NCBI GenBank assembly: GCA_049322955.1
Contig: JBMOPU010000012.1
Location: 788,791 to 852,790, forward strand
DNA from: Patescibacteria group bacterium
GTDB lineage: Bacteria > Patescibacteriota > Microgenomatia > UBA10105 > UBA927
Length of the DNA: 64,000 nt
Direction: 5' to 3'
A model generated the notes under the pieces. That model was not told the origin of the DNA. It searched no databases and saw only the letters and a program-made list of their open reading frames with translations. The translations under genes were made by a program, and so were the position numbers. This document shows, in pieces, positions 15,339 through 61,658 of this stretch; the stretch's first letter is position 1; each line of letters starts with the position of its first letter.

Positions 15339-16009
15339 AGCAGTAACCAATACATAAGGCTTTCCATATAGCCGAAGCAAAGTGCTATGAGTATTCCTCG
15401 CCATCCGTCCCGCCACCCCTCATCTTTAATGGCTCGCGCCCAAACCATATGAGGACCGTAGAGAAAAAGTTTTTTGAGCGTTACTCTTTCTCCCGCTTTT
15501 TTCTTTTCCCCTGCCATCTGCCATGCATATTTAGTGAATTTGAGTAGAACATAAGTAATTGACCTATATGAATAGTGCAATATTTTGCCACGACATACGC
15601 CAATATCTCCATTTACGGATATTTCCTCATGTATTGGCAACTCCGATACAGATGCTTTTATTTTTTTAAATAAACGTACTTTTTTGTACACTTCCCCCCC
15701 ATATAAAAGTGGCTTATCACCGACATGGTTTTGATATCTAATTGCATAGCCTGAAATCAAGATATTAGGGTTGCTAATAATCCTTCGAATATCAATTAAA
15801 AGATCGTCTGTAACGATCTCATCAGTATCAAGCAATAAGACCCATTCATAAGCGGCAAGTCTTAAGAGATGATTCTTTCGAGCACCTAGAGGCTCGTAAC
15901 CATTTTGACTAATATCTACGATTATTTGTGGGTTTAACGGTAATACGCTTTTAATAGTTCTAATTAAGTAATCGTCTATTTTTTGGCAAATGATCAAAAT
16001 AGATATCAT
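15317..16009 (-). CDS. Glycosyltransferase family 2 (WaaE/KdtX-like), AT-rich
   Basis: MISILIICQK...LLLDTDE (DxD)...C-terminal hydrophobic tail; paralogous in organisation to 9039..9785; strongly AT-rich codon usage versus the surrounding genome. Confidence 0.7.
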   Translation of the reverse strand: MISILIICQKIDDYLIRTIKSVLPLNPQIIVDISQNGYEPLGARKNHLLRLAAYEWVLLLDTDEIVTDDLLIDIRRIISNPNILISGYAIRYQNHVGDKPLLYGGEVYKKVRLFKKIKASVSELPIHEEISVNGDIGVCRGKILHYSYRSITYVLLKFTKYAWQMAGEKKKAGERVTLKKLFLYGPHMVWARAIKDEGWRDGWRGILIALCFGYMESLMYWLLLWRNIFG

Positions 16010-16011
16010 AA

Positions 16012-16857
16012 TTATAATTTCTTCAAAAGAAGTAAAGATAAACCGCCTCGATTCGTTATAACACTTAGCAACTCAATTATATGTAATATAGGCATAAGGA
16101 TAATAAATAAACACTTAGTGAACATATTTTTCTTGAATATGCCCATAATATTTAAGATGAAGTCATTTCGATCTTGGTATGTAAATTTCTTTAATATGAT
16201 AAATCCTCTATTTTGCATGTATTGCGATATAAAATCAAAAGAAAAATGAAGCACATGGTCGGGAATTGACCACCAATCCCATTTTTCTCCTGTAATATAT
16301 GCCATATAACTTTTGTAATTTGGTACTTGAAGCAAAAGAAGACCATTTGGTTTTAAAACCCGCTTTAGTTCTGTAATATTATTATTAATGTTAATGCTGT
16401 GTTCTAGTACATCAAGACAAGTTATCACATCAAAGAAATTATCGTTGTAAGGTATTTGATCTAGGGAACCTGTAGCGATATTCAGTTTAGAATTAAGTTT
16501 TGCTACTTTCCGCAATTTATCGTTTGGTTCAACACCATATGGATTAAAAAAGCTATTCTTTTTAACATATTTTAGAAAAAAGCCCGTGCCACAACCAATA
16601 TCAAGCAAGTTTCCATCTGTTTTATATCTATTGATTAAATGTAGGAAATTTTTATATCTCTCATTAAACTTACTCAATTTTTCCTCATAATCTTTTGCAT
16701 AACCTGTTTCATATTGTTTTTTTATAAATTTTTTTCTTTTTTCTTCATCTACTGGGTTAAAAAGTAAGGTGCATTTATTGCATGAAAAAATCACATGACC
16801 ACTTATATTTGCATATTCACTAGTAATTTCTGAGCCACATGATGGACACGGATACAT
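16012..16857 (-). CDS. Class I SAM-dependent methyltransferase with N-terminal Zn-ribbon
   Basis: CPSCGS...CNKC Zn-ribbon, then motif I LLDIGCGTGFF and motif post-I/II (VITCLDVLEH), Methyltransf_11/12-like; AT-rich. Confidence 0.7.
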   Translation of the reverse strand: MYPCPSCGSEITSEYANISGHVIFSCNKCTLLFNPVDEEKRKKFIKKQYETGYAKDYEEKLSKFNERYKNFLHLINRYKTDGNLLDIGCGTGFFLKYVKKNSFFNPYGVEPNDKLRKVAKLNSKLNIATGSLDQIPYNDNFFDVITCLDVLEHSININNNITELKRVLKPNGLLLLQVPNYKSYMAYITGEKWDWWSIPDHVLHFSFDFISQYMQNRGFIILKKFTYQDRNDFILNIMGIFKKNMFTKCLFIILMPILHIIELLSVITNRGGLSLLLLKKL

Positions 16858-16954
16858 GCGGGTAGTTTATCACATTCTTTATGTGGTATTTCTTACTGAC
16901 AATATTTTTATGTAGTGCTATTTTCAAAATTATATTTGTAGCCGCAGGAGATTT

Positions 16955-18937
16955 ATGAAATTATTCCTGTCCACTCTAGCGGTTTTGATTTTCTGTATTT
17001 TTCTTTTAGCTCAAACCACGTCGGTTAAGGCGTCTTATATCTTCTCTGATTCCTTTTTAAACTCATATAGCAATGAATGGAGCGTACCTAGTAGTACTTT
17101 CCCTCCCGTTTTAACTTCATCCGGGATTACAGGTACTGATATAAGTAATTCGTGGACTGTTTTGGAATATGCTATTGCAGGCAACTATATTTATCAGATT
17201 GAATTTGATATTACTGTTAATAAATCAACAAGCCAACAAACATGGGGACTTGGTATAGGTGATAACCAAAATAACTGGAAAATTATAAACACATGGCAAA
17301 ATTATCTTCAATTACATGATTCAAATAATAACGATAAGCTTGTGTCTTGGAATCATTCTTTAGGCAAGCATCATTTCGTTGTAAGAATATCACCTCAATC
17401 TAACACAGACATTATTATTTATGAGGACGATATTTTGTTAGGATCCGTTAACACCTCTTCTTCCTTTGAATTAACTAGAGTTTGGATATCTTTTTTGGGT
17501 AACGGAGACTACGAAATGGCAAATTTTGTTCTTTCCACATACGAAGAACCTACACCGACCCCAACGGTAGAACCGACGTTAACCCCGACACCATCGCCCA
17601 CTCCTACACCAACGCCTTTACCGACAGCGACTCCCACACCGGCATCTGAAGCACCCCGGAAAGTTATCGTCATACATGGCGCGGGAGGAAGTTGGAACAA
17701 AGACGCCCTCCTAAATTGCAAAACGACCGAATATTCGGGAGATTGGTCGCCGTGGAAAATAAAAAATGCTGATATATATGATTCACTTACCAATAATATA
17801 CGAGCACACGGATATGAAGTGTTGCCGTTTTACTACGATTGGCGAAGAAATGCACCGGATTCCGCACAACAACTCAACGCATTTATCACTTCCCGAGTGC
17901 CAGCCGGTCAGATGGCTGATGTCGTGGCACACAGTTTTGGCGGAATAGTGAGCCGAACATATGTGGCATCCGCAAAAAGCGAAAGTCGTATCCGATCGCT
18001 ACTCACGGTTGGCACCCCGCATCAGGGATCAGTGCTTGCATATCCTGCGTGGTCTGCAGGCGAAATGTGGATAGACGATATCTCAATACGGCTCGGATTT
18101 ACCATGATGCGCGTAGGGTGTGCCATCAAAAACGACATGTCCGCGCGGGAAACAGTACATGTATCAATTCCGGCAACACAAAACATTTTACCGATATTTG
18201 ATTATCTGAAAACACCGTCGGGGAAAACCATTTCCGTAGCGGAAATGACGGCAACAAATAATCTGCTTCCCGATACATATGTGCCGCCTTACTACGACAT
18301 ACGGGTAGGTGCTCTATCCGGTTCCGGATATCAGACGCTTCGCACGCTAGAAGTACAACCGGCAAGCAAAAATGATCGTCGGCTAGGGAATTGGACAGAC
18401 GGTAGGCCGACAAATAATAAAGCCTATGCCGATGGTGACGGCACGGTATTAACCGAGAGTAGCGTGTTATCGGATGCTGAAAATGTAATACTTCCGCTCG
18501 ATCATGCCGGATTGGTGACTGATCCGACCGGAATCGATGCCATACTTGGTTTTCTTGATAACCAGGCTTTTACACAATCAATGCTGAGATTGAACAGGCA
18601 AACACCAATCAAAATCAAACCTGCAAAAAACACCTCGGCACTTCTTCTCGTTGCCGATAACGCGCATCTTACGCTTACCGACAATAACGGAAATAAAACG
18701 ACCGATGATGAAGGGCAAATCACCATTCTCGATCCCCACCTGCAGGCATATACCCTTACTGTCATACCGTCTAAAAAATGGTGGTGGCAGAAAAAAGCGA
18801 AAATTATCGTTATCCAGCTCTTCGACGACGGCACTTCAACCTGGAAAGAATATACCCACACGGGCACCGGGAACAAAAAATGGAAACTTCGATTTGATGC
18901 GCATCGAAAAAACAACGACATCCTACATGACCGATGA
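16955..18937 (+). CDS. Secreted alpha/beta-hydrolase lipase/esterase (PGAP1/LCAT-like) with N-terminal unknown domain and Pro/Thr-rich linker
   Basis: Signal peptide-like N-terminus; ~190 aa unknown domain; linker EEPTPTPTVEPTLTPTPSPTPTPTPLPTATPTPAS; catalytic region with VVAHSFGG (GxSxG-type nucleophile elbow) and HAGLV near C-terminus. Composition switches from AT-rich (N-terminal domain) to GC-rich (hydrolase domain). Confidence 0.65.
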   Translation: MKLFLSTLAVLIFCIFLLAQTTSVKASYIFSDSFLNSYSNEWSVPSSTFPPVLTSSGITGTDISNSWTVLEYAIAGNYIYQIEFDITVNKSTSQQTWGLGIGDNQNNWKIINTWQNYLQLHDSNNNDKLVSWNHSLGKHHFVVRISPQSNTDIIIYEDDILLGSVNTSSSFELTRVWISFLGNGDYEMANFVLSTYEEPTPTPTVEPTLTPTPSPTPTPTPLPTATPTPASEAPRKVIVIHGAGGSWNKDALLNCKTTEYSGDWSPWKIKNADIYDSLTNNIRAHGYEVLPFYYDWRRNAPDSAQQLNAFITSRVPAGQMADVVAHSFGGIVSRTYVASAKSESRIRSLLTVGTPHQGSVLAYPAWSAGEMWIDDISIRLGFTMMRVGCAIKNDMSARETVHVSIPATQNILPIFDYLKTPSGKTISVAEMTATNNLLPDTYVPPYYDIRVGALSGSGYQTLRTLEVQPASKNDRRLGNWTDGRPTNNKAYADGDGTVLTESSVLSDAENVILPLDHAGLVTDPTGIDAILGFLDNQAFTQSMLRLNRQTPIKIKPAKNTSALLLVADNAHLTLTDNNGNKTTDDEGQITILDPHLQAYTLTVIPSKKWWWQKKAKIIVIQLFDDGTSTWKEYTHTGTGNKKWKLRFDAHRKNNDILHDR

Positions 18938-44732: not shown

Positions 44733-45857
44733 TTATCGTCGGGGCGTCAATACTTCTGAAACCGTTTTCATGAGTCGTATCGCCCCGTCGTGCGGTGCCG
44801 TGGCGGCAAGCGCTTTCGCTTGTTCCTTGCGCTGTGTCATGGTTGCCGTGATTGCATCGATTGCGGCAATTAAGGACGCCGCGGTAAGCTGTCGCTGTTC
44901 AAGAATTATTGATCCTGCTTTTTCGAGTACTTTTGCATTATGGAATTGCTCGTTACCGGCAGACCACGGCAGAGGTATCAGTACGGCAACGGCGCCGACC
45001 AGCGCCAATTCCGACACCGTATTTGCGCCGGATCTTCCGACGATAAGCGCACTATGGTGCAATGCCCAACTGTATTCTTCGGCGGTGAAAAATGCCTTGT
45101 GGATATATCGCTTTCGGAGACTTTGCGGCAGTGCTCTTGCCGCTTTGTCCCCCGCTTCCACGGAAAGCCTCCCCACCTGATGCAAGACCGTGTAACGGCT
45201 AAGGAGTTTTTCGAGGGCCGCGAAAACGGCGGTATTGATACTTACCGAACCCGTGCTTCCGCCCACGACAAATAACACGGGGGTATCCGAATCAACGGCA
45301 AAAGGTGATGCTTTGGGGGGCGTGAGTACCGCACTCCGTATGGGCAGTCCGGTCACTTCCACGCGGCTTGTTTTCGGGAGCATGGCCGTCGTATCCGCAA
45401 AACTCACACATACGCGTGTTGCGATACGGGCGATAATACGGTTGGCTAATCCCGGACGAGTGGTTTGTTCGTGCGTGATAACGGGAATACCCAAAAGTTT
45501 CGCACACAAAGCAACGGGAAGCGCCACATACCCGCCGAAAGACAATATGCCGTCCGGACGCTTCCGAAGAAGCATGATAAACGCCTGCGCAAAACCGACG
45601 GGAACCTTGAACAGGGAAAAAAACGTTCCTATCCCCAAATCTCGCTTCAATCTGCCCGCGGTAATCGGCACAAACGACACCCCGAGATCGTGAATAAGGC
45701 GGTATTCCTCCGAAAGGACTTTCGTTCCTTCCAACGAATACTTTCTCCCGACAAATATAAGCCGCCAATTCGGATGCGATTGTCGTATCGCCTCTATGGT
45801 AGCGATTGCGGGAGTCACATGACCGCCGGTAATGACGAGCGTTATCGGATGGTTCAT
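44733..45857 (-). CDS. murG: UDP-GlcNAc--lipid I GlcNAc transferase MurG
   Basis: ITGGHVTPAIA N-terminal G-loop, GT28 C-terminal domain (VGRSGANTVSELALVG), synteny. Confidence 0.9.
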   Translation of the reverse strand: MNHPITLVITGGHVTPAIATIEAIRQSHPNWRLIFVGRKYSLEGTKVLSEEYRLIHDLGVSFVPITAGRLKRDLGIGTFFSLFKVPVGFAQAFIMLLRKRPDGILSFGGYVALPVALCAKLLGIPVITHEQTTRPGLANRIIARIATRVCVSFADTTAMLPKTSRVEVTGLPIRSAVLTPPKASPFAVDSDTPVLFVVGGSTGSVSINTAVFAALEKLLSRYTVLHQVGRLSVEAGDKAARALPQSLRKRYIHKAFFTAEEYSWALHHSALIVGRSGANTVSELALVGAVAVLIPLPWSAGNEQFHNAKVLEKAGSIILEQRQLTAASLIAAIDAITATMTQRKEQAKALAATAPHDGAIRLMKTVSEVLTPRR

Positions 45858-46996
45858 AACTTGTTTCCTGACTTACTTATATTATAGACAATACCAAGCG
45901 CCGCCAAGGTTACGATCAGCCCCGATCCCCCGTAGGAAATAAGCGGCAACGGCACACCGGTAAGCGGAAGTAACGCTACCATCGAACCCGTGTTGACGAG
46001 CGCCTGTGCACCGATCCACGAACCCACTCCCAACGTAAATAATTTACCGAACGGATCGTTCACCCGTTTGGCGATTTTAAAGCATCGCCAGACAAGAAAT
46101 ACGAACAGTGCAATGACAATAACCGCCCCGAAAAATCCCACTTCTTCTCCGAGGATGGCAAAAATGGAATCGGTGTTTGCCTCGGGCAAGTATTCGTATT
46201 TCTGCCGTGACTTCCCTAAACCCACCCCGAAAAATCCCCCCGATCCCAACGCGATAAGCGCCTGACGGATTTGATATGACGCCCCCAACGGATCCGATTC
46301 GGGATTGAGGAACGTCGTGACCCGGCGGAGTCTATACGGCTGTACGACGGCAAGTCCAGCAATCCCGACAATAAGCACGGGAATAAGCCCGATAAAATGC
46401 CCTACGGGAGCACCGGAAAGAAAGTAGAGTGCCATGGAGGTAACAATAATCGTTATCGCGGTTCCCAAATCCGGCTCGATAATGACGAGACCCGATACCA
46501 TGCCGAGCAACAGAAGGAATGCCAATAATCTCCCGTGCTCTTTGGTGGCAAACCATGCCGAAAGATATAGCACCATGGCCAGCTTCGCAAATTCCGCGGG
46601 CTGAAGGACAAAGAATCCGAAATCAATCCACCGATGCGCACCAAGCGCGCGTACTCCGAGGCCAGGGATAAATACGGCAATGAGCAGGATGAGCGTTACG
46701 ACGATTCCCGGAACCGCAAACCGTTTCCAAATACCGTACGGAATACGAGAAAGAATCGTAAATCCCGTAAATCCCAACAGCAACCATTTCACCTGATCGC
46801 GGACAAAATGATACGGATTGGAAAAATCCCGAAACGCGATGGCCACCGAAGAATCGTACACCATGATGATGCCGATGATGGATAACACGACCGTCGTAAG
46901 GAGGAGCCACCGGTCCCCCCGGCCTTCCGAATTTTTTATATGTCGTACCGCACTCTGCCTATCTGCTTTGTGCGCAAGTGATGCAAAAATCTTCAT
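45854..46996 (-). CDS. ftsW: SEDS peptidoglycan glycosyltransferase FtsW
   Basis: FtsW/RodA family, 10 TM; ATGA overlap with murG; located between mraY and murG. Confidence 0.85.
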   Translation of the reverse strand: MKIFASLAHKADRQSAVRHIKNSEGRGDRWLLLTTVVLSIIGIIMVYDSSVAIAFRDFSNPYHFVRDQVKWLLLGFTGFTILSRIPYGIWKRFAVPGIVVTLILLIAVFIPGLGVRALGAHRWIDFGFFVLQPAEFAKLAMVLYLSAWFATKEHGRLLAFLLLLGMVSGLVIIEPDLGTAITIIVTSMALYFLSGAPVGHFIGLIPVLIVGIAGLAVVQPYRLRRVTTFLNPESDPLGASYQIRQALIALGSGGFFGVGLGKSRQKYEYLPEANTDSIFAILGEEVGFFGAVIVIALFVFLVWRCFKIAKRVNDPFGKLFTLGVGSWIGAQALVNTGSMVALLPLTGVPLPLISYGGSGLIVTLAALGIVYNISKSGNKL

Positions 46997-47008
46997 GGTG
47001 CCGGGATC

Positions 47009-48043
47009 TTAACTCAGAAGCGCAAGCCACAAACCAAAGAGTGCCAAGACAATAGCAAGTATCCAAAACCGCATGACGATTTTTGACTCAGGCCAACCTT
47101 TCACCTGCAACCACAAGTGCAAGGGGGCGGCGGCAAAAAGCTTTTTGCCCGTGATTGATTTTGCCACAAGTTGGACGAGTGAAGATGCGACCTCAAGAAC
47201 GAATATTCCTCCGATGACGACCAGTGCCGGGGTTTTTCCGAGGATCAGTCCGACCACGGCAAAGGTGGCACCGAAGGAAAGCGAACCGACATCCCCCATG
47301 AATATACGGGAGGGCAAGACGTTAAAGTACAAAAACGCCAACATTCCGCCGATCCATAACGCCAAAAACAGGGAAAGCACGGTGTCCAAGATAGCCGCCG
47401 ATAAAAACCAAAATGCAAAAAGCGCAATCACCAGTACTCCCGCGGACAGTCCGTCCAGTCCGTCGGTAATATTAAACGCATTGGCGAATGCGATAATCAC
47501 AAACACCGCAAACGGTATGTACCACCATCCGAGGTGAAACACCCCCAGAAGCGGCAGATGGACGATGCCGATCTTCAAATCGTGTACCAACCAAAATCCG
47601 ATGATACCCGCAAGCAATATTTCAAGGTATAGCTTATGCCGGAGCCTCAGACCGAAAAATCCGTTCTTTACCCAGCCGAATGTTTTTTTCGTATCATCCA
47701 AAAGACCCAACAACCCGAACGAGATAAAGGTGAATAACAGAATCTTTACCTCACTTGCCAACGGATACACCGACGTAATCGGTATCCAGAAATAGTACAT
47801 GAGGACCAGCAACACCGGCAAAAGCAGGGTCGTGAGCGCGATAATCAGAAGTCCTCCTCCCACGGGAGTACCTGCCTTGTGATGGTGGAATTTGTCAAAA
47901 AGCGGGGTTCGTTTATTGAACATGTCGCGGGTGACCTGATCGAGTCTGCGAAGCTTCAAATGATACAGAAGTTTGATAAACGGGATGAACAATACACTGT
48001 GGATAAGCCACGAAAATAAGACGACGCCGAGAAGTAATTGCAT
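47009..48043 (-). CDS. mraY: Phospho-N-acetylmuramoyl-pentapeptide transferase MraY
   Basis: NAFNITDGLDGLSAGV and FMGDVGSLSFGATFAVVG motifs. Confidence 0.95.
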   Translation of the reverse strand: MQLLLGVVLFSWLIHSVLFIPFIKLLYHLKLRRLDQVTRDMFNKRTPLFDKFHHHKAGTPVGGGLLIIALTTLLLPVLLVLMYYFWIPITSVYPLASEVKILLFTFISFGLLGLLDDTKKTFGWVKNGFFGLRLRHKLYLEILLAGIIGFWLVHDLKIGIVHLPLLGVFHLGWWYIPFAVFVIIAFANAFNITDGLDGLSAGVLVIALFAFWFLSAAILDTVLSLFLALWIGGMLAFLYFNVLPSRIFMGDVGSLSFGATFAVVGLILGKTPALVVIGGIFVLEVASSLVQLVAKSITGKKLFAAAPLHLWLQVKGWPESKIVMRFWILAIVLALFGLWLALLS

Positions 48044-48482: not shown

Positions 48483-49532
48483 CTAATCGTACCCTTTCAT
48501 AAGACGCCTGATCGTTTCAACGGTTCGCGGAATAATGTACAGGGGAGATAACGGAATATCCTGCGCATGAGAATATTCGACCACCCTGCCCCCGAATCCC
48601 TTTTTGAACAATGTTATTCCTCGCCATGGATGATTTGGGCTGTTTTCCGGTGCTATACCCCAAAAATTGTACACTTTCATTCCTCTTTTTTTGGCATCTT
48701 TGATTGCTTCCCACTGCAGAAGTGGCGACGCGGGTACTTTTGACTGTACCGATGCGCCATGGTGATATATCGCCTGATTGCCGTAATACAGGATAATCGC
48801 CGACGCCGTCGTTTTGCCTTCATATTTGCCCAAATACAGCAAGGCCTGTTTTGCTTTCGCAAACAGCGCAAATTCTTCCCGTATGCCAACATGCGGGACA
48901 AACCCGTGGCGGTTGCTTGTCGCTTCATAGAGCGAAAAAAATTCATGAAGATATTTGCCGTCCGTGGTCGTAAAGACCGCCACCCCTTCCTTTTGCCCGC
49001 GACGCACCTCATAACGGACCGTTTTTCGCATACCGGAGAGCAACTCTTCTTCCGATTTATCAAGATCCAATACCCAGCAATACTCCCCGTCCATCCGATG
49101 CATGGCGGCGGGTATCGTGCGCAGGCGGGAAAACAGTGATGCGGTTTCGGGGGAATTCGGCAGTAAGGGACTGATCCGTATGAAGACGCATCCTAACTTT
49201 TTTGCTTCTCGGGTCAGCAGTGCAAGGGATGCTTTCCACGTAGCAATGTCCTGTTTTTCAAAAACCGGACCGTGTCGCACATGCAAGAACTTTCCCCGTT
49301 TTGCGTTGACGAGCACGGCTTGCGCGACACCTACAAGTTTGTCACCCCGGTAAAATCCGTATCGCGACACGGCAATGTGGGCGTTTTTTTGTACTTCACC
49401 CCATAACCAGCTCTGAAAAAGCGCCTGAGGACTGTGTCGGAGGATAAACCATTCCCACGTGGCGCGATCTTCGACAATACGCATGAGGAGTTTCATATCG
49501 CTATTGTACGTGAAAGGATGATTCGACGCCAA
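48483..49532 (-). CDS. FemAB-family peptidoglycan aminoacyl/peptidyl transferase (FemX/MurM-like)
   Basis: FemAB domain features (YRGDKLVGVAQAV...GKTTASAIILYYGNQAIYHHGAS...). Possible alternative start at Met-13 (49496) avoiding overlap with the MBL gene. Confidence 0.7.
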   Translation of the reverse strand: MASNHPFTYNSDMKLLMRIVEDRATWEWFILRHSPQALFQSWLWGEVQKNAHIAVSRYGFYRGDKLVGVAQAVLVNAKRGKFLHVRHGPVFEKQDIATWKASLALLTREAKKLGCVFIRISPLLPNSPETASLFSRLRTIPAAMHRMDGEYCWVLDLDKSEEELLSGMRKTVRYEVRRGQKEGVAVFTTTDGKYLHEFFSLYEATSNRHGFVPHVGIREEFALFAKAKQALLYLGKYEGKTTASAIILYYGNQAIYHHGASVQSKVPASPLLQWEAIKDAKKRGMKVYNFWGIAPENSPNHPWRGITLFKKGFGGRVVEYSHAQDIPLSPLYIIPRTVETIRRLMKGYD

Positions 49533-50135: not shown

Positions 50136-51104
50136 TTAGTCGGCAAATATTTGCGTGAACATTTTGCCGTATATGCCTCCGTCAATGACGCCGATACCGA
50201 TCCGACCGAACCGGGGTTCCAAAATATTTGCCCGATGTCCAGGGCTGTTCATGAGGCCGTCGTGCGCGCTCGTGAGATCGGGAGCGTAGGCCAAATTTTC
50301 CCCTACCACGGTGTAGGAGATCTTTGCCGCATCCATCCGATCGGCCGCGTTTTTTCCGTCGGGATCATAATGCGAAAAATATCGACGCTCGAACATATCC
50401 CGACTTTTTCCTCGGGCAACCGTGCTTATTGAAGGATCCAGGGTAAGCGGTGCAAGGCCTTTCTGCACCCGTTCTTTGTTGACGAGATCGACCATCCCCG
50501 ATTCTGCGGTGCTATCGGTAGTATAGACGATGCCGCGAGCCGGAATATCAAGCGGTATTTGCTGTTTTGAACCCGGCTCCACCGTAAGGAAGGTGACGGC
50601 CTTTTTTGCGGCCTGCGAAATCGATGAGGTAATATCACCCGCATAACGCTGTGCAATCCGTATCAATGCGCTCCCTATGAAGGATGCGTTAATATCCTGT
50701 TTTATTGTGCCCCGTAGCGGAAGGGCAAGAATCAAAAGCAGGAAAAAAGTAACCAGAATGCACCCGTTAACCGCGGAAAGAAACGCGCCGATAATCTGAT
50801 TGATTTTTGACGCATGGAGTTTGTCGGGCAATCTATTGATTCCGAACAGCAATACTTCTTCAATGACAAGCTGAGCGATGAGGGCAACACCCGCATACCC
50901 CACAACCGAAGTCCAAGCGGGAGTAATACCGAATTTTTCGCCGAGAAAAGTTCCGACGACGCCCTGATAGCGTATGGCAAGCCAAAGGGAACCGATGAAC
51001 GAAAATAAATTGGCGATAAGCGTCAGACTGCCGCGAATCCACCCTTCATACAAGTGATACAGGATAACAATGACGATGATAGCGTCTATCCAATAAAGTT
51101 GCAT
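50136..51104 (-). CDS. CvpA-family membrane protein fused to C-terminal CAP (SCP/PR-1, YkwD-like) domain
   Basis: N-terminal 4-TM CvpA-like region (MQLYWIDAIIVIVILY...); C-terminal ~120 aa with CAP motifs (HYDPDGKNA...GENLAY...MNSPGHRANIL). Confidence 0.6.
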   Translation of the reverse strand: MQLYWIDAIIVIVILYHLYEGWIRGSLTLIANLFSFIGSLWLAIRYQGVVGTFLGEKFGITPAWTSVVGYAGVALIAQLVIEEVLLFGINRLPDKLHASKINQIIGAFLSAVNGCILVTFFLLLILALPLRGTIKQDINASFIGSALIRIAQRYAGDITSSISQAAKKAVTFLTVEPGSKQQIPLDIPARGIVYTTDSTAESGMVDLVNKERVQKGLAPLTLDPSISTVARGKSRDMFERRYFSHYDPDGKNAADRMDAAKISYTVVGENLAYAPDLTSAHDGLMNSPGHRANILEPRFGRIGIGVIDGGIYGKMFTQIFAD

Positions 51105-51107
51105 TGG

Positions 51108-52349
51108 TTAGCGAAGTTTCCGGACAAGCGAAACGACTGCGTTGGCATCCTTCCCGCTTATCAGGGTGGGAAGATTGACTACTCTTGATGCGGCGGATTC
51201 CGCAACGGGACAACTTCCCTTTTTATAGCCGATACTGATAAATGCAACACCCCGGGGATCGATAATATTATTATACCAATTTCCCAAAAGCACCCCCTGT
51301 TTTTTCGCTTTCGACCTCATACGTTCCGGGTTAGCCACTTCAATGGTATATCGTAAAGGGGCACTGCCATTTGTCAGTTTGGGCAGGGTGATACCGGGCA
51401 GAGTAGCAAGCGATTCGGCGTAATATGACGCAATCGATTGGCGCATCTTCGTGTAGCGGGTAAGTTTTTTCAGTTGTCCGATAAGCAAATAGGCAAGCGC
51501 CTCGGGATATTTTGCCGGAAACAACAACGGTTTGCCCCCTGTTTTTTCCGTCGCAAACACCGGAAACGATAACAACCGCATTCGTTGCATAAGAAATAAA
51601 AGCAGTTTTCCTATGCCAAGTCGGTACATCGGCAGAATGAGCGCAAAGAGTATCGGATGTAAAAGTTGCTGGGCAATCCAACCGGCGTTTGGTTGCGGTA
51701 CGCGTTCGTGATAGCGGGAAAGCGCATCCACCGCTTTTTTGTGTCTGGCGCGGATAACCGCCGCTCCTCCCCACACGCTGGAAAGCGATTTATCACGACC
51801 GAAACTGAAAAAAGCCGCATCACCCAAGGTGCCCAAGGGCGTATCGTTGCATCGTGATCCCAGCGCATGGGCACAATCCTCGATAAGCAGAAGATTATGC
51901 TTTTTGGCGATGACAAGAAGCGAGTCCATATCGGCAGGGACACCGAACGTATGTTGCACGATAATCGCTTTTGTTTTTCGGCTGACGCATTTTTCTACCG
52001 ATCGCGGTGCGCTATTGTAGGTCCCGTCGATATCCGCATAGACGGGGGTCGCCCCCGCCCACAGCACGCCGTTGGGAACGGCGACACACGTGAATGCCTG
52101 TACGATCACCTCGTCTCCTTCTCCTATACCGAAACTCTTGAGGATTACAAACAGCGCACTGCGTCCGCTATTGAAAAAAAATGGACGATCCCCGTTCCCC
52201 AAATATTCGGCAAACCAACGGGTAACCTCGGCGAGACTTCCTCCCCGTTGCCACCGCCACGGCGTCAAAAACATACCGAATGCGCGCAGGACATCATCCC
52301 CTTCGGTATTGGGAGACAACGAGGCTGATATGACGCGAGCAATACCCAT
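51108..52349 (-). CDS. DegT/DnrJ/EryC1/StrS-family PLP-dependent sugar aminotransferase
   Basis: SGRSALFVILKSFGIGEGDEVIVQAFTCVAVPNGVLWAGATPVYADID and FSFGRDKSLS (Lys for PLP) typical of DegT family. Confidence 0.8.
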   Translation of the reverse strand: MGIARVISASLSPNTEGDDVLRAFGMFLTPWRWQRGGSLAEVTRWFAEYLGNGDRPFFFNSGRSALFVILKSFGIGEGDEVIVQAFTCVAVPNGVLWAGATPVYADIDGTYNSAPRSVEKCVSRKTKAIIVQHTFGVPADMDSLLVIAKKHNLLLIEDCAHALGSRCNDTPLGTLGDAAFFSFGRDKSLSSVWGGAAVIRARHKKAVDALSRYHERVPQPNAGWIAQQLLHPILFALILPMYRLGIGKLLLFLMQRMRLLSFPVFATEKTGGKPLLFPAKYPEALAYLLIGQLKKLTRYTKMRQSIASYYAESLATLPGITLPKLTNGSAPLRYTIEVANPERMRSKAKKQGVLLGNWYNNIIDPRGVAFISIGYKKGSCPVAESAASRVVNLPTLISGKDANAVVSLVRKLR

Positions 52350-52354
52350 AGCGG

Positions 52355-53953
52355 TTATACAAGCAGATGCAATGCGTGTTCGGCATCTTTTCCCTTAAAA
52401 AGCACGACATCGCCTTTCCGCACCGTATCACGAATATACGTGGCAATCGGTGACGGAGGACGGATATATACGGGACATTTCGGAGAAACTTTTTTGACGC
52501 CTTTGATAAACGATTCGGAAAAATTACCGTTTGTCAGGAAGATGACATCGCAATGCTTTGCGGCAACCTCTCCCACCGCCTCATGTGAACTCTGTGCATA
52601 TGCGCCCAACTCTACCATCGGTTGAAACACCATAATGCGTTTTCCATTTTGATCGCCCAGAAAACGAATCGCCGCCATGGCCGCATCGGGATTGTTATTG
52701 AACGTATCATCGATAAATATGCTTCCGTTCACTCCGGGTCGAACCCGCATGACTTTTTCGGCGGGACTGACCGTACTTGCCGCTTTTGCCGCAGACCGAA
52801 AATCCATCCCGACTGCCACCGCTCCCGCAATCGCCGCCAAAATGTTTCCCGCCTGGTGCACCCCTACGACGGGTGCGTGGACGGATATTTTTTGTGACTT
52901 GTACCTGCATTCAAAGCGAACGCCGGTGATATCCGAACGGATATTGTCGCCGTAAAATATTTCGTCGGCGAGCACGGCGTGATTTTTATGAGGCTCCCGT
53001 ACCGTCCATCCCCAGACGACACATCCGTCGCGTCGTGCCCACTGTGCCATGGTGCATACCCTATGGTCATCCAAGTTAACTATCACGACGCGCTTCCCGA
53101 CCAACCCTTGTACCAGTTCATATTTGGCCTGCATCGTTGTTTCGATGGAACCGAATAAATCCTGGTGTTGGGGATTGATGGCCGTGAGTATGCCGACTTC
53201 CGGATGAACCATGGCGGCCATTTCCCCTATTTCCCCCGGTCGGTATGCTCCCATTTCCACCACAAATACCTCATCATCGGCCGAAAGTTTCCGCAGGAGC
53301 AATTCAGCAATTCCTATCGGCGAATTTTTGCTCGCTTCGGTTTTTATCGTCTTATGCCCCGTGGCAAGAATTGCCGAGACATATTCTTTGACGGAGGTCT
53401 TTCCGTAACTGCCCGTGATGCCTATGACCGCCATTTTTTTGTGTCTGGAAAGTACTCCTATGGCCTGGCGAATTTTTATACGGTGGTATATCCGCGTCGG
53501 TATGGTCAGAAGTACGACGATAATCGTACTCACGGGAAACAGCAAAAGATCGGTGATCGCAAGAGAAACGATCCACGGAAACGGCATAACAAACGGAGCG
53601 ATAATGAACGTTCCAACGAGGACCCCCCCCAACAGGATAACTTTCGGGGAAACGGGCGGCAGATGCCAATTCCTTATACTTCGTACGTACATCCCTCCCA
53701 CGACCGCATAAAAAACCGCCAACAACGCTATCGAAATGTCCCGCAGACCGGGAACCGATGCGAGCATAAGGAGGAATATCGCAAGAAGGTGCGTTTTGGC
53801 AAAAAGCAATGTCTTGCCCTGTGCCGTCCCCATGTGAATGCGCATCCTATCGATACGGTATTCTTTGCGCCACCATAAAAAGAGCAAGCCGGCAATCTTG
53901 TGACCTGCTCGGGCGGCAAAACCGATACCTCCCAATGTTACAAGTAGTTCCAT
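52355..53953 (-). CDS. murF: UDP-MurNAc-tripeptide--D-Ala-D-Ala ligase MurF with N-terminal multi-TM extension
   Basis: P-loop IGITGSYGKTS, and MurF-type C-terminal DDTFNNNPDA (DDSYNANP-like). N-terminal ~170 aa contain 3-4 hydrophobic helices instead of the usual soluble domain 1. Start placed at MELLVT (53953); longest ORF begins 54007 and would overlap the upstream hydrolase gene. Confidence 0.8.
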   Translation of the reverse strand: MELLVTLGGIGFAARAGHKIAGLLFLWWRKEYRIDRMRIHMGTAQGKTLLFAKTHLLAIFLLMLASVPGLRDISIALLAVFYAVVGGMYVRSIRNWHLPPVSPKVILLGGVLVGTFIIAPFVMPFPWIVSLAITDLLLFPVSTIIVVLLTIPTRIYHRIKIRQAIGVLSRHKKMAVIGITGSYGKTSVKEYVSAILATGHKTIKTEASKNSPIGIAELLLRKLSADDEVFVVEMGAYRPGEIGEMAAMVHPEVGILTAINPQHQDLFGSIETTMQAKYELVQGLVGKRVVIVNLDDHRVCTMAQWARRDGCVVWGWTVREPHKNHAVLADEIFYGDNIRSDITGVRFECRYKSQKISVHAPVVGVHQAGNILAAIAGAVAVGMDFRSAAKAASTVSPAEKVMRVRPGVNGSIFIDDTFNNNPDAAMAAIRFLGDQNGKRIMVFQPMVELGAYAQSSHEAVGEVAAKHCDVIFLTNGNFSESFIKGVKKVSPKCPVYIRPPSPIATYIRDTVRKGDVVLFKGKDAEHALHLLV

Positions 53954-53954
53954 A

Positions 53955-54671
53955 TCACGTTTGCAAAAATGCCATGACGCGAGCGGCAAATTCCGCGGGG
54001 TGTTCAAACGGAACGGCGTGGGTCATTTCCGGCATGATGATGAGCCGGGAGCCTTGAATGGTATCGCGCATTCGTTCCGCAACTGAAACGGGGACAATCG
54101 TGTCGTTTTGTCCCCACACCAGGAGGCAGGGTACGGCAACCGATCGCATGGCCGTCGATAAGTCATCCGCCACGATATATTTAAACGTTTGTCGCATCGC
54201 GCCTTCGGCGCGTAAAAATTCTCTGGCACCGGCAATGTAGTACAACCATTTACGGGCACCGTCCGCGATATGCCGTAACCCCGGGAGCTGAAAAATAATT
54301 CCCCCGATTTTCGAAATAATCAGGAAAAAACGCAGTTTTTTTGAAGGGATAGGACTGTAACCCGGCGTACCCGTCAACACGATTTTTTTGACTCGTGAAG
54401 GATACAGCTCGGCGTATTTCAACGAAACTCTCCCGCCGAATGAATGGCCGACGAGAATGGGATTTTTTATCGTATGTTTTGTAATATACCGATGAAGAAA
54501 TTCCGCATAATCCGAAACATGCCAGGCGACATCGGGGGCTTTTTCATCTCCGAATCCCGGCATATCCGGGGCAAAGACGCGGAATCCCGCCTTACGAAAT
54601 CTGTCGGCAAGGGCAGGAAATCGCTTCCCCGAAAGGTTCCAGCCGTGAAGAATAATAAGATCCTGTTTCAT
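53955..54671 (-). CDS. Alpha/beta-fold hydrolase
   Basis: GHSFGG nucleophile elbow, HGW...G oxyanion region, C-terminal His; 238 aa. Confidence 0.7.
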   Translation of the reverse strand: MKQDLIILHGWNLSGKRFPALADRFRKAGFRVFAPDMPGFGDEKAPDVAWHVSDYAEFLHRYITKHTIKNPILVGHSFGGRVSLKYAELYPSRVKKIVLTGTPGYSPIPSKKLRFFLIISKIGGIIFQLPGLRHIADGARKWLYYIAGAREFLRAEGAMRQTFKYIVADDLSTAMRSVAVPCLLVWGQNDTIVPVSVAERMRDTIQGSRLIIMPEMTHAVPFEHPAEFAARVMAFLQT

Positions 54672-54677
54672 AGGGCG

Positions 54678-55988
54678 TCAGATTTTTGCTTTATATTTGT
54701 CCCGGTTATTCGTACCCACTGCACGGGTATTTTTTTTGACGACGAGGGTGCTTTTTCCGGTACAAAACGAATCGGCGGGAATATCGGCATCAAGCAAAAT
54801 GCCCGCTCCTATCAGGGAATTTGCACCTATTTTGACACCGGGCATAACACTCGCATTTACCCCTATGCGTACCCCTCTGGCTATCATGGCACCCAATTTT
54901 GTTTTTTTGGTATTTATTTTTTGTTCTCCGACAACGGAGTGTATTTCCCCTTCATCGAGCCGCAGGTTGGCAAGCACCGATCCCGAACCCATACTGACAT
55001 CGCCTTCAAGAACACTGTCGCCGACATAGTTACTGTGGAACCAGCAGTTGTCGCCGATATAGCTTCTCGTGATATCGGTGTTAAACCCGGTAACGCAATT
55101 TTCACCGATAATGCTGTCTCGAATGATATTATTATTGCCCACGATCGTGTTGTCTCCGATATACACCGGCCCCACGATCTTCGTGTTTTCAAAAATCTTC
55201 ACGTTATTCCCCAAATATACGGGGCCTTCAATACTTACGTTGTTTCGTATTTCCACTCGCTTTCCCCGACCGGCAACCAATCGGTGGGTGAGTAAATACT
55301 CGGTCATATCCAGTACATGCCAGGGATATTTTAGCGAAACAAACTCACGCTCATAGGGCACCATCACGAATCGATCCTTTGCCATAAGCGCGGTGAGGGC
55401 ATGCTCGTACCTATCGTCGGTTTGCTCCGGAGCAGATTCGATGGCGGCAATCAGACTGTCGGCGTCGGCGATATATTGTCCGCCGAAGTACACGTACTCG
55501 CTCGGCGTCTTACCCTCACCGGGTTTTTCTTTGATACCCACAGGTCTCCCCTCACGAAACACCAGATATCCCCCGGGGAAATACTGCTTCGGTTTCCAAC
55601 CTACGATAACGCCGGATACGTCCGGTCTGACACTTTGTAACACCGTATCAATGAGGCGATCATCCGCCACATCGTCTCCGATGACGACGAGGATTGCTTT
55701 CTTCCGAAGTTCGTTTTTTGCGGCAAGAAGCGCTCCTGCCATACCGGTTGCTTCTTTTTGCACAACCACGGTGTGCGGCACGGGGAAATGCATTGCTTCA
55801 AACGTTTCAAGGTTACGCTCGCTTACCACAAGTACGAGACGAACCACTTCAGGCGGTAATTTGTTCGGCAGGGCATAATCGATGACTTTTTTTCCGAGAA
55901 ACGGGAAGAGGGTTTTGTCGGTACGAAACGGCGCAAACCGCTTGCCGATACCCGCCGTGAGTACCACCATCGTAACATCGCGTTTCAT
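54678..55988 (-). CDS. GlmU-like bifunctional protein: sugar-1-phosphate nucleotidyltransferase + left-handed beta-helix (hexapeptide) domain
   Basis: N-terminal MVVLTAGIGKRF (NTP_transferase G-loop), C-terminal tandem hexapeptide repeats (IGDNTIVGNNNIIRDSIIGENCV...). Confidence 0.6.
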   Translation of the reverse strand: MKRDVTMVVLTAGIGKRFAPFRTDKTLFPFLGKKVIDYALPNKLPPEVVRLVLVVSERNLETFEAMHFPVPHTVVVQKEATGMAGALLAAKNELRKKAILVVIGDDVADDRLIDTVLQSVRPDVSGVIVGWKPKQYFPGGYLVFREGRPVGIKEKPGEGKTPSEYVYFGGQYIADADSLIAAIESAPEQTDDRYEHALTALMAKDRFVMVPYEREFVSLKYPWHVLDMTEYLLTHRLVAGRGKRVEIRNNVSIEGPVYLGNNVKIFENTKIVGPVYIGDNTIVGNNNIIRDSIIGENCVTGFNTDITRSYIGDNCWFHSNYVGDSVLEGDVSMGSGSVLANLRLDEGEIHSVVGEQKINTKKTKLGAMIARGVRIGVNASVMPGVKIGANSLIGAGILLDADIPADSFCTGKSTLVVKKNTRAVGTNNRDKYKAKI

Positions 55989-59745: not shown

Positions 59746-60441
59746 CTATAATTTCTCCGAATGTTTCCTTGGTATCTTTGCGAAACGAAAAAAACGGTCA
59801 TTCTGACACGACGTGCAGGTAACCGGCGCATCAATGTGTACCTGGGTAACGCCTGCGGTAAGAAGCAGTTGTCTGTTCGCATAGCCGATATCAGCGTACC
59901 AGGTATCACCGCTGTTTGAGATAATGAGCGGATCATTACCGAACTTTTTTGCAAACAACTCAGCCCGATCACTCCCTATAGCATAACAGCATCTGCCGAT
60001 ATGCGGACCGATCGATGCATAGATAGTAGCAGGCGTGGCTCCCTGTTGTGTCATACGGGTCACCGCATTTTGCACGATACCGGCAAGCGTTCCCTTCCAG
60101 CCCGCATGCACCGCGGCGACAACTTTTGCCACCGGATCCGCAAGAAGCACCGGCACACAGTCCGCAACATGCACTTCCAGCATGACGGATGGATCCGCCG
60201 TTACCACTCCGTCGACTCCCGAAACCGTCCGGGGAAACGTCGCATCGACGACCGCAACGTCCGAAGCGTGCACCTGTTGCCCCCGAATGACGGGACGGGT
60301 GGTGCCGATAACTTTTTTGATAAACGCATCCGTATTGGTTGCGATTCGTCCGTCACCCATTGTGCGATCCGAATAGCCGTGCGTAATGCCGGGAAGTCCC
60401 GAAAGAAGTGTCGATTGCCCTCTGCCGTTTGTATAAATCAT
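59746..60441 (-). CDS. pgeF: Peptidoglycan editing factor PgeF / YfiH (Cu-oxidase_4, DUF152)
   Basis: HVADCVPVLL and AAVHAGWKG motifs. Confidence 0.8.
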   Translation of the reverse strand: MIYTNGRGQSTLLSGLPGITHGYSDRTMGDGRIATNTDAFIKKVIGTTRPVIRGQQVHASDVAVVDATFPRTVSGVDGVVTADPSVMLEVHVADCVPVLLADPVAKVVAAVHAGWKGTLAGIVQNAVTRMTQQGATPATIYASIGPHIGRCCYAIGSDRAELFAKKFGNDPLIISNSGDTWYADIGYANRQLLLTAGVTQVHIDAPVTCTSCQNDRFFRFAKIPRKHSEKL

Positions 60442-61658
60442 CGTGATTTCTTCCGCTTTGCCAAAAGCTTTTTTGCCGCAGACGCATCACTCCAGGGATA
60501 TTCCTTTGTCCCGCGACACAAACTTTGTTCGTGACCTTTTCCAGTCAATATAACGATATCCCCCGGTTTGGCCTGTGAAAACGCAAATACGACCGCGTCT
60601 TTGCGATTGGGGTACCGATGGACTTCTTTGCCCTCGGGAATGCCTTTTGCGATGGCATCCATGATATCCTCGACGTTTTCGGTGCGGAAATCCTCCTCGG
60701 TTAATACGATACAGTTGGCGTATTTTGCCGATGCAGCTCCCATCAGCGGCCGTTTTGACTGATCCCGAAGTCCCGCGCTTCCGAACACGTGAATCAGGCG
60801 TTTTCGCGTCATCTTTCGGACCGTTGAAAGCGCTTTTTCCAATGCGTTGGGAGTGTGGGCAAAATCAACAATAACCTTGAACGGTTTTTCCGCAATGACC
60901 TGCATCCTCCCCACCACCCCCGAAAAATGCTTGAGGGCAGAAAGCGAAACGGAACGGGAAATACCCAAAGCATCCGCGACGGCAAGCGCGGCAAGCGCGT
61001 TATACCGGTTGAACATACCGGGGATCTTGAGGCGCACGGGATGAGTTTTGGGATTCACCATACTGTCGCGGCGTATGCCGTAAGTGATGTAGCGTTTCTT
61101 GGTAAGATACGGCATGCCCGCCATATAAACGTTTGCTTCATCGCGGTTTATGACGGCAACTTTTGCCTGCGAAAGCAGGGTAAGTTTAGTTTTCCGATAG
61201 TTTTCAAACGTGCCGTGCCAATCAAGATGTTCGTGCGTGATATTGGTGATCGCTCCCACGGCAAATCGAACACCGAACACCCGGGACTGACTTAGGGCGT
61301 GGGACGTAACTTCAAGTACCATGTGGGTGTCGCCGTGATCCACCGCCTCCCGCAGATACCGCTGTACCCACCAGGCGGTGGGGGTGGTGACATGGAATCC
61401 CGTGTCATAGGAACGCCCCGCAATCACCGCATGCACCGAGGTGATCATGGAGGCTTTTACCTTGGCTTTTTTCAAAATTTCATACACCATCGTGGTCGTG
61501 GTGGTTTTCCCGTCCGTACCCGTGATACCGATAACCGTGAGTGACCGGCTCGGAAACCGGAACCAGATATTGGCCACAATAGCCACCGCGAGATGGTAGA
61601 GCCCCTTGAGGGTTCGTAGCATGAGGCTATTATACCGAAAGTAAGCCGACAAGAGCAA
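60438..61658 (-). CDS. murE: UDP-MurNAc-L-Ala-D-Glu--diamino acid ligase MurE (short N-terminus)
   Basis: P-loop GITGTDGKTTTT only ~42 aa from N-terminus; MurE-type DFAHTPNALEKAL (DYAHTPDAL-like) and GSAGLRDQSKRPLMG; specificity motif reads EDFRTE rather than DNPR. Confidence 0.75.
   Translation of the reverse strand: MLLSAYFRYNSLMLRTLKGLYHLAVAIVANIWFRFPSRSLTVIGITGTDGKTTTTTMVYEILKKAKVKASMITSVHAVIAGRSYDTGFHVTTPTAWWVQRYLREAVDHGDTHMVLEVTSHALSQSRVFGVRFAVGAITNITHEHLDWHGTFENYRKTKLTLLSQAKVAVINRDEANVYMAGMPYLTKKRYITYGIRRDSMVNPKTHPVRLKIPGMFNRYNALAALAVADALGISRSVSLSALKHFSGVVGRMQVIAEKPFKVIVDFAHTPNALEKALSTVRKMTRKRLIHVFGSAGLRDQSKRPLMGAASAKYANCIVLTEEDFRTENVEDIMDAIAKGIPEGKEVHRYPNRKDAVVFAFSQAKPGDIVILTGKGHEQSLCRGTKEYPWSDASAAKKLLAKRKKSR

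Follow-up and report, generated by a model that had tools for sequence, protein, structure and literature searches.

A widespread clade of MurF-like ligases carries an N-terminal membrane domain and is accompanied by a serine hydrolase gene

Textbooks present the four Mur ligases as soluble enzymes of the cytoplasm, and there has long been debate over whether they come together at the membrane, where MraY uses the MurF product. One relative, MurT/GatD, has the Mur-ligase fold without its first domain (domain 1), acts on a lipid-linked precursor at the face of the membrane, and requires a second subunit of hydrolase type. The poly-gamma-glutamate synthetase PgsB/CapB is a Mur-superfamily amide ligase with an N-terminal hydrophobic segment at the membrane and a cytoplasmic catalytic part (PMC7490850). 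Natural chimeras of the Mur pathway include MurE-MurF, MurD-FtsW and MraY-MurG (Shirakawa et al., 2023; PMC10214165), and the Bordetella MurE-MurF chimera lacks the N-terminal 'cap' of MurF, whose role falls to the fusion partner (PMC10214165). The survey of these chimeras screened only proteins of more than 600 residues (PMC10214165), and would therefore have missed the family of 450–560 residues described here. We analysed a 64,000-nucleotide stretch of a Patescibacteria group bacterium (hereafter the window; contig JBMOPU010000012.1), which encodes a MurF-like ligase with an N-terminal membrane domain, TM-MurF, on the minus strand of an expanded cluster of division and cell-wall (dcw) genes. 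A literature search found no description of a transmembrane (TM) MurF architecture or of its hydrolase partner.

TM-MurF joins a membrane domain (residues 1–170, 53444..53953 (-)), in place of domain 1 of canonical MurF, to two Mur ligase domains; residue numbers refer to the 532-residue form of the protein. The P-loop, GITGSYGKTS, occupies residues 178–187 (53393..53422 (-), codon register checked), and its aromatic residue 183 is a signature of the TM type: tyrosine or phenylalanine stands there in 74 of 74 TM-type proteins, versus valine or asparagine in 58 soluble MurFs. The central, ATP-binding domain (52826..53419 (-); PF08245, E=2.9e-36) aligns to residues 99–380 of E. coli MurF and contains E233, H263, K277, N293 and D295, all conserved in both subtypes of the family. 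The C-terminal domain (52388..52744 (-); PF02875, E=5.7e-12) contains DDTFNNNP, VFQPMVELG and H457, with the DxxFNxNP motif conserved. A Pfam search returned Mur_ligase_M and Mur_ligase_C only, with no match to domain 1. Among NCBIfam models murF was the best (TIGR01143, 220.1 bits, versus 80 for murD, 64 for murC and 62 for murE); the match spans model positions 69–405 only, leaving positions 1–68 unmatched, and the alignment with E. coli MurF (1GG4) starts at residue 99 of the latter. The best PDB sequence matches and the best fold matches (Foldseek) were all MurF. Together, these matches show both catalytic domains to be intact and MurF-like in sequence.

Kyte-Doolittle windows give four strong hydrophobic segments and a weaker first helix in residues 1–170. 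An AlphaFold2 model from a 29-sequence alignment (predicted local distance difference test score 90.5, predicted template-modelling score 0.83) places helices at residues 2–29, 34–41, 44–51, 53–65, 71–91, 103–122, 127–136 and 138–170, and the first ligase strand at 175–180. Helix 1 (residues 2–29, 53867..53950 (-)) is probably transmembrane, judging from hydropathy, alignment and model; it is moderately hydrophobic and carries R15, which is conserved in the Candidate Phyla Radiation (CPR). The invariant cytoplasmic motif LWWRKEYRIDRMRIHMGTAQGK (residues 26–47, 53813..53878 (-)) forms two short helices in the model and consists of invariant columns in alignments A1 and A2; its family-wide core is Q/W28 and Y32, the latter at 98%. 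Helices 2 and 3 (residues 49–91, 53681..53809 (-); hydropathy and model) form a hairpin that is missing from relatives of ~490 residues, where alignment A1 has a 43-residue indel. About half of the relatives lack this hairpin and have three helices, not five, which keeps the topology. A second cytoplasmic motif, WHLPPVSPK (residues 96–104, 53642..53668 (-)), includes P99, which A1 shows to be invariant, and two positions conserved family-wide, T/S102 and R/K104. Helices 4 and 5 (residues 103–170, 53444..53647 (-); model secondary structure) complete the domain; helix 5 (127–170) is kinked at F139-P140 and in the model then runs unbroken out of the membrane into the ligase.

Invariant positions of the membrane domain are concentrated just after helix 1 (L26, W27, K30, E31, Y32, R33, D35, R36, M37, H40, T43, Q45 and G46), and the alignment adds P99, then D135, F139 and P140 (inside helix 5), and P152, Y156, H157 and A164; family-wide, P152 is conserved at 98% and A164 at 100%. 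Lysine and arginine cluster in loop 28–52, in loop 92–104 and past residue 152. Such charges agree with an N-terminus outside, a C-terminus inside and a cytoplasmic ligase; were helix 1, with R15, H17 and K18, to lie on the membrane and not across it, both ends would be inside and the ligase would still be cytoplasmic. The positive-inside pattern of the loops puts the invariant polar motifs on the cytoplasmic side, and the positions conserved family-wide are all on that face, with none in the membrane core. Used alone as a query, the domain matched 31 cluster representatives among 1.84 billion, almost all of them proteins of the same kind with 480–535 residues, and it matched no PDB sequence; it has no recognisable relative outside its own protein family. 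Because its cytoplasmic-face motifs are invariant and a hydrolase gene is its constant companion, the membrane domain is likely to be more than an anchor.

The architecture is widely distributed. When 5.8 billion proteins were searched, over 100 homologues of 460–545 residues came up, plus one 424-residue fragment, covering 93–100% of the query at 44–97% identity; the named ones are Gottesmanbacteria or Patescibacteria. A scan of one genome per species gave at least 580 relatives, of which the best 80 were examined, and the architecture is present in at least about 80 genomes at species level, from many phyla. Among the best 80 are many CPR lineages, Clostridia, Tissierellia, Erysipelotrichaceae, Poribacteria, NC10, Chloroflexota, Bacteroidota and a Thiomargarita metagenome-assembled genome. 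Relatives across phyla have 450–560 residues, a P-loop at about 160–208 and several hydrophobic segments ahead of it. In 74 TM-type members the median length ahead of the P-loop is ~182 residues, mostly with 3–5 hydrophobic segments; as controls, the same hydropathy method found zero such segments in 36 canonical MurFs (71–132 residues ahead of the P-loop) and in 22 short Parcubacterial MurFs (~30 residues). Conservation analysis indicated that the N-terminal domains of other phyla are homologous to that of the window. After helix 1, other phyla have LHxLQLEGYxxxxYxxW where the CPR form has LWWxKEYRxDRMxIHL, and the basic motif is KKPLVFTxRAKR in D-type proteins versus RRPPxSPK in the CPR form; two helices, the proline (98%) and the alanine (100%) follow. 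The family signature is a hydrophobic domain of ~110–210 residues ahead of the P-loop, in which helix 1 is followed by [QW]x[KE][EG]Y and the ligase is preceded by a conserved proline and alanine. The window copy has W28, Y32, P152 and A164 at these positions (89–100% family-wide), and its GSYGKT fits the TM-type P-loop GS[YF]GKT. The label given to these proteins by NCBI and JGI is simply MurF, as in Gottschalkia acidurici 9a.

A neighbour-joining tree built on 345 columns from the ligase parts of 139 sequences contained one clean TM-type clade (77/77) with the window copy inside it. Within this clade, a CPR-only T clade (26/26) separated from a D clade (51/51, including four CPR D-types), and canonical and short MurFs formed the other clade (62/62). 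Mean ligase identity was 0.33 between T and D and 0.27 between TM-type and canonical MurF. On their ligase sequences, TM-MurFs are thus shown to be a distinct, widely distributed clade of MurF-like ligases.

The source open reading frame (ORF) is at 52355..54007 (-); its longest reading, from a TTG, gives 550 residues and overlaps the upstream alpha/beta-hydrolase gene (53955..54671) by 53 nucleotides. The TGA of the hydrolase gene at 53955–53957 is followed, after one base, by an ATG at 53953 (junction TGAtATG), and all aligned homologues begin at this ATG. We therefore dropped the TTG start at 54007 and assigned TM-MurF 532 residues, not 550. The coding sequence, of T subtype, spans 52355..53953 (-), stop included, as supported by the homologue alignment, the junction, and MurF as the best family match. 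The first-pass annotation had described a MurF with three to four strongly hydrophobic helices, where the soluble N-terminal domain would be, ahead of a P-loop at about residue 170–190. This description held up: the three hydrophobic stretches that it quoted share a single uninterrupted frame with the ligase, the P-loop lies where stated (178–187 in the 532-residue form, which is 196–205 in the 550-residue ORF), hydropathy gives four strong segments plus a weaker first one and AlphaFold five helices, and a helical membrane bundle replaces the soluble domain ahead of the points at which the murF model (69) and E. coli MurF (99) begin to align. Its proposal that the fusion be sought in related genomes was borne out end to end in the more than 100 homologues and in loci of many phyla. 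The same annotation called the arrangement unusual, which is right when set against the textbook soluble MurF and wrong in so far as this is a widespread family across phyla, not a curiosity of one genome. It had further allowed that the hydrophobic region might belong to a separate ORF, through a frameshift or an annotation artefact. An assembly, frameshift or gene-calling error that joined a membrane-protein gene to a truncated murF would agree with the 53-nucleotide overlap of the maximal TTG ORF, but the conservation data have already refuted it, and its probability is negligible: the frame is single and uninterrupted, the homologues are independent and full-length, the same architecture is found on complete chromosomes from several phyla, and the AlphaFold2 model is confident across the junction between membrane domain and ligase.

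The gene upstream of TM-MurF encodes an alpha/beta-fold serine hydrolase of 238 residues (53955..54671 (-); Pfam), whose stop lies one base ahead of the MurF start. We mapped neighbours by phmmer in 86 TM-type loci, 82 of which had room for an upstream gene. An alpha/beta hydrolase gene was directly upstream, on the same strand, in 81 of the 82, the exception being the Thiomargarita contig, and the hydrolase is catalytically intact, its triad of Ser77 (GHSxGG), Asp190 and His218 being 97–100% conserved (79 loci). Of 80 loci centred on soluble MurF-like genes, only L091, which itself has a TM-MurF, had the hydrolase gene. The hydrolase and TM-MurF genes overlap or abut, and the two are probably co-translated. 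Against the PDB, the hydrolase matched generic esterases only. A hydrophobic lid on the hydrolase was considered as a clue to a lipid substrate and dropped; the window copy has it, but of 65 members of the family only 11 do. The first-pass annotation, correct on the architecture, passed over this constant serine hydrolase gene. The feature is confirmed as real and conserved: a MurF clade that is widespread and anchored in the membrane, and whose hydrolase partner is obligatory.

What follows TM-MurF differs between the two subtypes. In the D subtype, Ddl comes directly after TM-MurF, as in 48 loci from other phyla, including Tissierellia; the G. acidurici Ddl passes the NCBIfam D-Ala-D-Ala ligase cut-offs. 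In Poribacteria and NC10, FtsI and a full-length MurE are followed in order by hydrolase, TM-MurF, Ddl, MraY, MurD, FtsW, MurG and MurC, so that the module, placed between murE and mraY, fills the classical murF slot. In the T subtype, which comprises window-like CPR loci, the order is hydrolase, TM-MurF, a DegT-like protein and a FemAB-like protein. Four CPR contexts carry the D-type module of hydrolase, TM-MurF and Ddl, with the QLE-Y motif (Doudnabacteria L046, the complete Roizmanbacteria genome L087, L088 and L089), and in all four contexts examined the CPR Ddl adjoins the D-type TM-MurF. The general statement that CPR lack Ddl was rejected, Ddl being common in CPR. In L089 FtsI is followed directly by the D-type module, as it is by the T-type module in 11 Parcubacterial and Saccharibacterial loci; since the modules share this slot, DegT and FemAB stand in the place of Ddl. 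By tree position and gene order the window copy is of the CPR-only T subtype and does not adjoin Ddl. Directly downstream of it, in the position that Ddl has in D-type modules, lies the gene for a DegT/DnrJ/EryC1-like pyridoxal phosphate (PLP) enzyme (51108..52349 (-); module comparison), of which only residues ~13–213 resemble sugar aminotransferases; the SFxxxK lysine is kept. The FemAB-family transferase (48483..49532 (-)) is a conserved member of the CPR T-type module.

Mur ligases in the window are MurC, MurE and TM-MurF only. In the T-type clusters L014 and L006, which hold MurA (with MurB in L006), MurC, MurD and MurE, the TM-type protein is the sole F-type ligase. The statement that TM-MurF is always the sole MurF was rejected, as L089 and L091 hold a soluble MurF-like gene too. 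Such soluble Parcubacterial MurF-like ligases (L089:11233-12534 (+); also L090–L117) have ~433 residues, with ~30 before the P-loop, and neither domain 1 nor a membrane domain; their gene is usually directly after FtsI.

We propose, with a probability of about 0.55, that TM-MurF is the membrane-anchored MurF-step ligase of the CPR dcw cluster, acting at the membrane face beside MraY. The ligase domains would sit on the cytoplasmic face of the membrane and, with ATP, add the C-terminal dipeptide (D-Ala-D-Ala) to the N-acetylmuramic acid (MurNAc)-tripeptide precursor, and the product would be consumed by the next-door MraY. The part of the lost domain 1 in holding the precursor might fall to the membrane domain's cytoplasmic motifs, perhaps jointly with the hydrolase. 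The latter may act at the same pathway step, on substrate or product, as an editing or accessory enzyme; PgeF is a precedent for an editing enzyme in the cell-wall precursor pathway. Gene position makes a coupling of TM-MurF to MraY or to lipid II plausible.

Several observations weigh against this proposal. The domain that holds the uridine diphosphate (UDP)-MurNAc part in canonical MurF is missing, the ligase part shares only ~27% identity with canonical MurF, and the murF model score lies below the curated cut-off (220.1 versus 288.6 bits). Because domain 1 is missing and the curated score is not reached, we filed the protein as a MurF variant, and on its sequence it is best described as such and not as a plain member. 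No Ddl was found within the 64-kb window, nor within 10 kb in T-type loci, and several C-terminal-domain positions that are otherwise conserved differ between T and D. Finally, the Parcubacterial contigs L089 and L091 carry, in addition to a D-type TM-MurF, a soluble MurF-like ligase of 433 residues right after Ddl, and this ligase scores 282 bits on the murF model, above TM-MurF.

The absence of Ddl from these stretches bears on what the T-subtype enzyme adds. The T subtype could add a product other than that of Ddl; the PLP enzyme (DegT-like) and the FemAB-like transferase would supply it or process it further. Consistent with this, the same slot holds FtsI-hydrolase-TM-MurF(D)-Ddl in L089 and FtsI-hydrolase-TM-MurF(T)-DegT-FemAB in the 11 loci, T and D are separate clean clades, most of the substitutions that set the subtypes apart fall in the C-terminal domain, the part to which the incoming amino acid binds, and the named CPR lineages with Ddl matches share none with the named T-type lineages. 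We nonetheless consider a changed substrate unlikely. A class B penicillin-binding protein (PBP) transpeptidase is present in the same cluster, and such an enzyme needs a donor of D-Ala-D-Ala type; Ddl could be encoded elsewhere in the genome; His457 is common to the T subtype and canonical MurF; and FemAB and sugar aminotransferases have ordinary cell-wall roles for which no link to MurF is needed. The missing domain 1 bears instead on the acceptor. With this UDP-binding domain gone and a membrane bundle in its place, the membrane domain might bind an undecaprenyl-diphosphate-linked precursor, not a UDP-linked one, in which case the substrate would be added to tripeptide lipid I or II after MraY. 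Conserved basic motifs lie at the membrane-cytoplasm interface, where the lipid diphosphate head group would lie; the MurE of the window lineage is likewise without domain 1; other Mur-ligase superfamily members without this domain use non-nucleotide acceptors; and the arrangement resembles MurT/GatD, which acts on lipid II. However, a lipid-linked acceptor seems quite improbable to us, given that the membrane core has no position conserved family-wide and that Poribacteria and NC10 have a full-length MurE with domain 1 just upstream, so that the tripeptide is made on UDP there. Moreover, a soluble MurF-like ligase without domain 1 exists, and loss of domain 1 alone is therefore no sign of a lipid substrate.

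The membrane-core residues and the helix number (3 to 5) vary, which would suit an N-terminal domain that is passive and serves to concentrate an ordinary MurF near MraY, with the hydrolase as an unrelated neighbour; fusions of Mur-pathway and membrane proteins are known, namely MurD-FtsW and MraY-MurG (PMC10214165). Such a tether is very doubtful. A passive anchor would have no need of cytoplasmic motifs that are invariant across phyla (Y32 98%, P152 98%, A164 100%), and the hydrolase gene, which overlaps or abuts that of TM-MurF, accompanies 81 of 82 TM-type loci versus 1 of 80 soluble-MurF loci, that one with a TM-MurF. Tentatively, and with the odds against it, a broader reading can be drawn, in which TM-MurF and the serine hydrolase would form an undescribed two-protein precursor step at the membrane face, uncoupled in the T subtype from Ddl and tied to a PLP enzyme plus a Fem-type transferase that depends on tRNA; completion of the stem peptide would then take another route, through a lipid-linked intermediate or a non-Ddl substrate, across much of the CPR.

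The dcw cluster of the window runs in the order FtsI, MurE, PgeF, MurC, MurB, MurA, GlmU-like, alpha/beta hydrolase, TM-MurF, and continues with DegT-like, CvpA/CAP, metallo-beta-lactamase-fold, FemAB-like, a 124-residue ORF, MraY (47009..48043 (-); a membrane enzyme), FtsW, MurG, FtsQ, FtsA and FtsZ. The 124-residue ORF stands where relatives carry DAGK_prokar, and the same gene order is seen again in the clusters of relatives. No MurD was found between MraY and FtsW (45854..48043 (-)) or elsewhere in the window, and MurD must be elsewhere in the genome or missing; the related clusters L014 and L006 do carry a Mur ligase between MraY and FtsW. MurE (60438..61658 (-); 406 residues as the maximal ORF) passes the murE cut-off and matches from about model position 88; it too is without the UDP-binding domain 1, with nothing in its place. 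Short MurE proteins are present in relatives as well (392–434 residues in L001, L003, L012 and L014, versus 500–563 in Poribacteria and NC10). A PgeF/YfiH-type gene (Cu-oxidase_4; 59746..60441 (-)) lies between MurE and MurC, in the same place as in relatives. The bifunctional sugar-1-phosphate nucleotidyltransferase/acetyltransferase inside the cluster (54678..55988 (-)) scores 215 bits on an archaeal GlmU-type model and 80 bits on bacterial GlmU, and is nearer to the former. A 322-residue protein (50136..51104 (-)) consists of an N-terminal CvpA (colicin V production) membrane domain and a C-terminal CAP/SCP domain, a fusion kept in related clusters. Positions 16001..18000 of the window have a G+C content of 0.354, versus ~0.50 elsewhere, and include part of a 660-residue ORF (16955..18937 (+)).

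TM-MurF runs against the textbook, in that many phyla, gut Clostridia and Bacteroidota among them, have the last Mur ligase built into the membrane, and it offers a direct test of the handover from soluble precursor synthesis to MraY. The CPR-specific subtype suggests a lineage difference in how the stem peptide is completed. There is also an annotation gap: these proteins are labelled plain 'MurF', score below the curated model cut-off, and have an N-terminal domain without a family model. MurF is an antibiotic target, and inhibitors built on the canonical three-domain enzyme may not apply to TM-MurF.

Compared with described systems, TM-MurF has its precedent in the Mur chimeras, in which Mur enzymes are joined to partners that include polytopic membrane proteins; those partners, however, are known pathway enzymes, whereas the partner domain of TM-MurF has no recognisable relative. 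MurT shares with TM-MurF the Mur-ligase fold without domain 1, but it is soluble, has a DUF1727 C-terminal domain and works with a glutaminase, where TM-MurF has an alpha/beta hydrolase gene; no MurT model was among the 24 NCBIfam matches of TM-MurF, and no glutaminase gene adjoins it. PgsB/CapB differs in having a single N-terminal segment, in working with PgsC and PgsA to make a polymer, and in a sequence that is not MurF-like; no pgsC or pgsA is near TM-MurF, and the PgsB/CapB family was absent from its Pfam and NCBIfam matches. The soluble short Parcubacterial ligases, like TM-MurF, come from CPR, are MurF-like and are without domain 1, but they have no membrane domain and no hydrolase partner, and they group with canonical MurF. 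Canonical MurF itself (TIGR01143; 1GG4, 4CVM, 4QF5, 3ZL8) resembles TM-MurF in the central and C-terminal domains, in all catalytic motifs and in its place in the dcw cluster, with some TM-MurFs in the exact murF slot and Ddl alongside. By contrast, where canonical MurF has a soluble domain 1 of ~80–100 residues, TM-MurF has a membrane domain of ~170 residues, and it further differs in forming a separate clade, in a P-loop with Y/F versus V/N, and in an obligatory neighbouring serine hydrolase.

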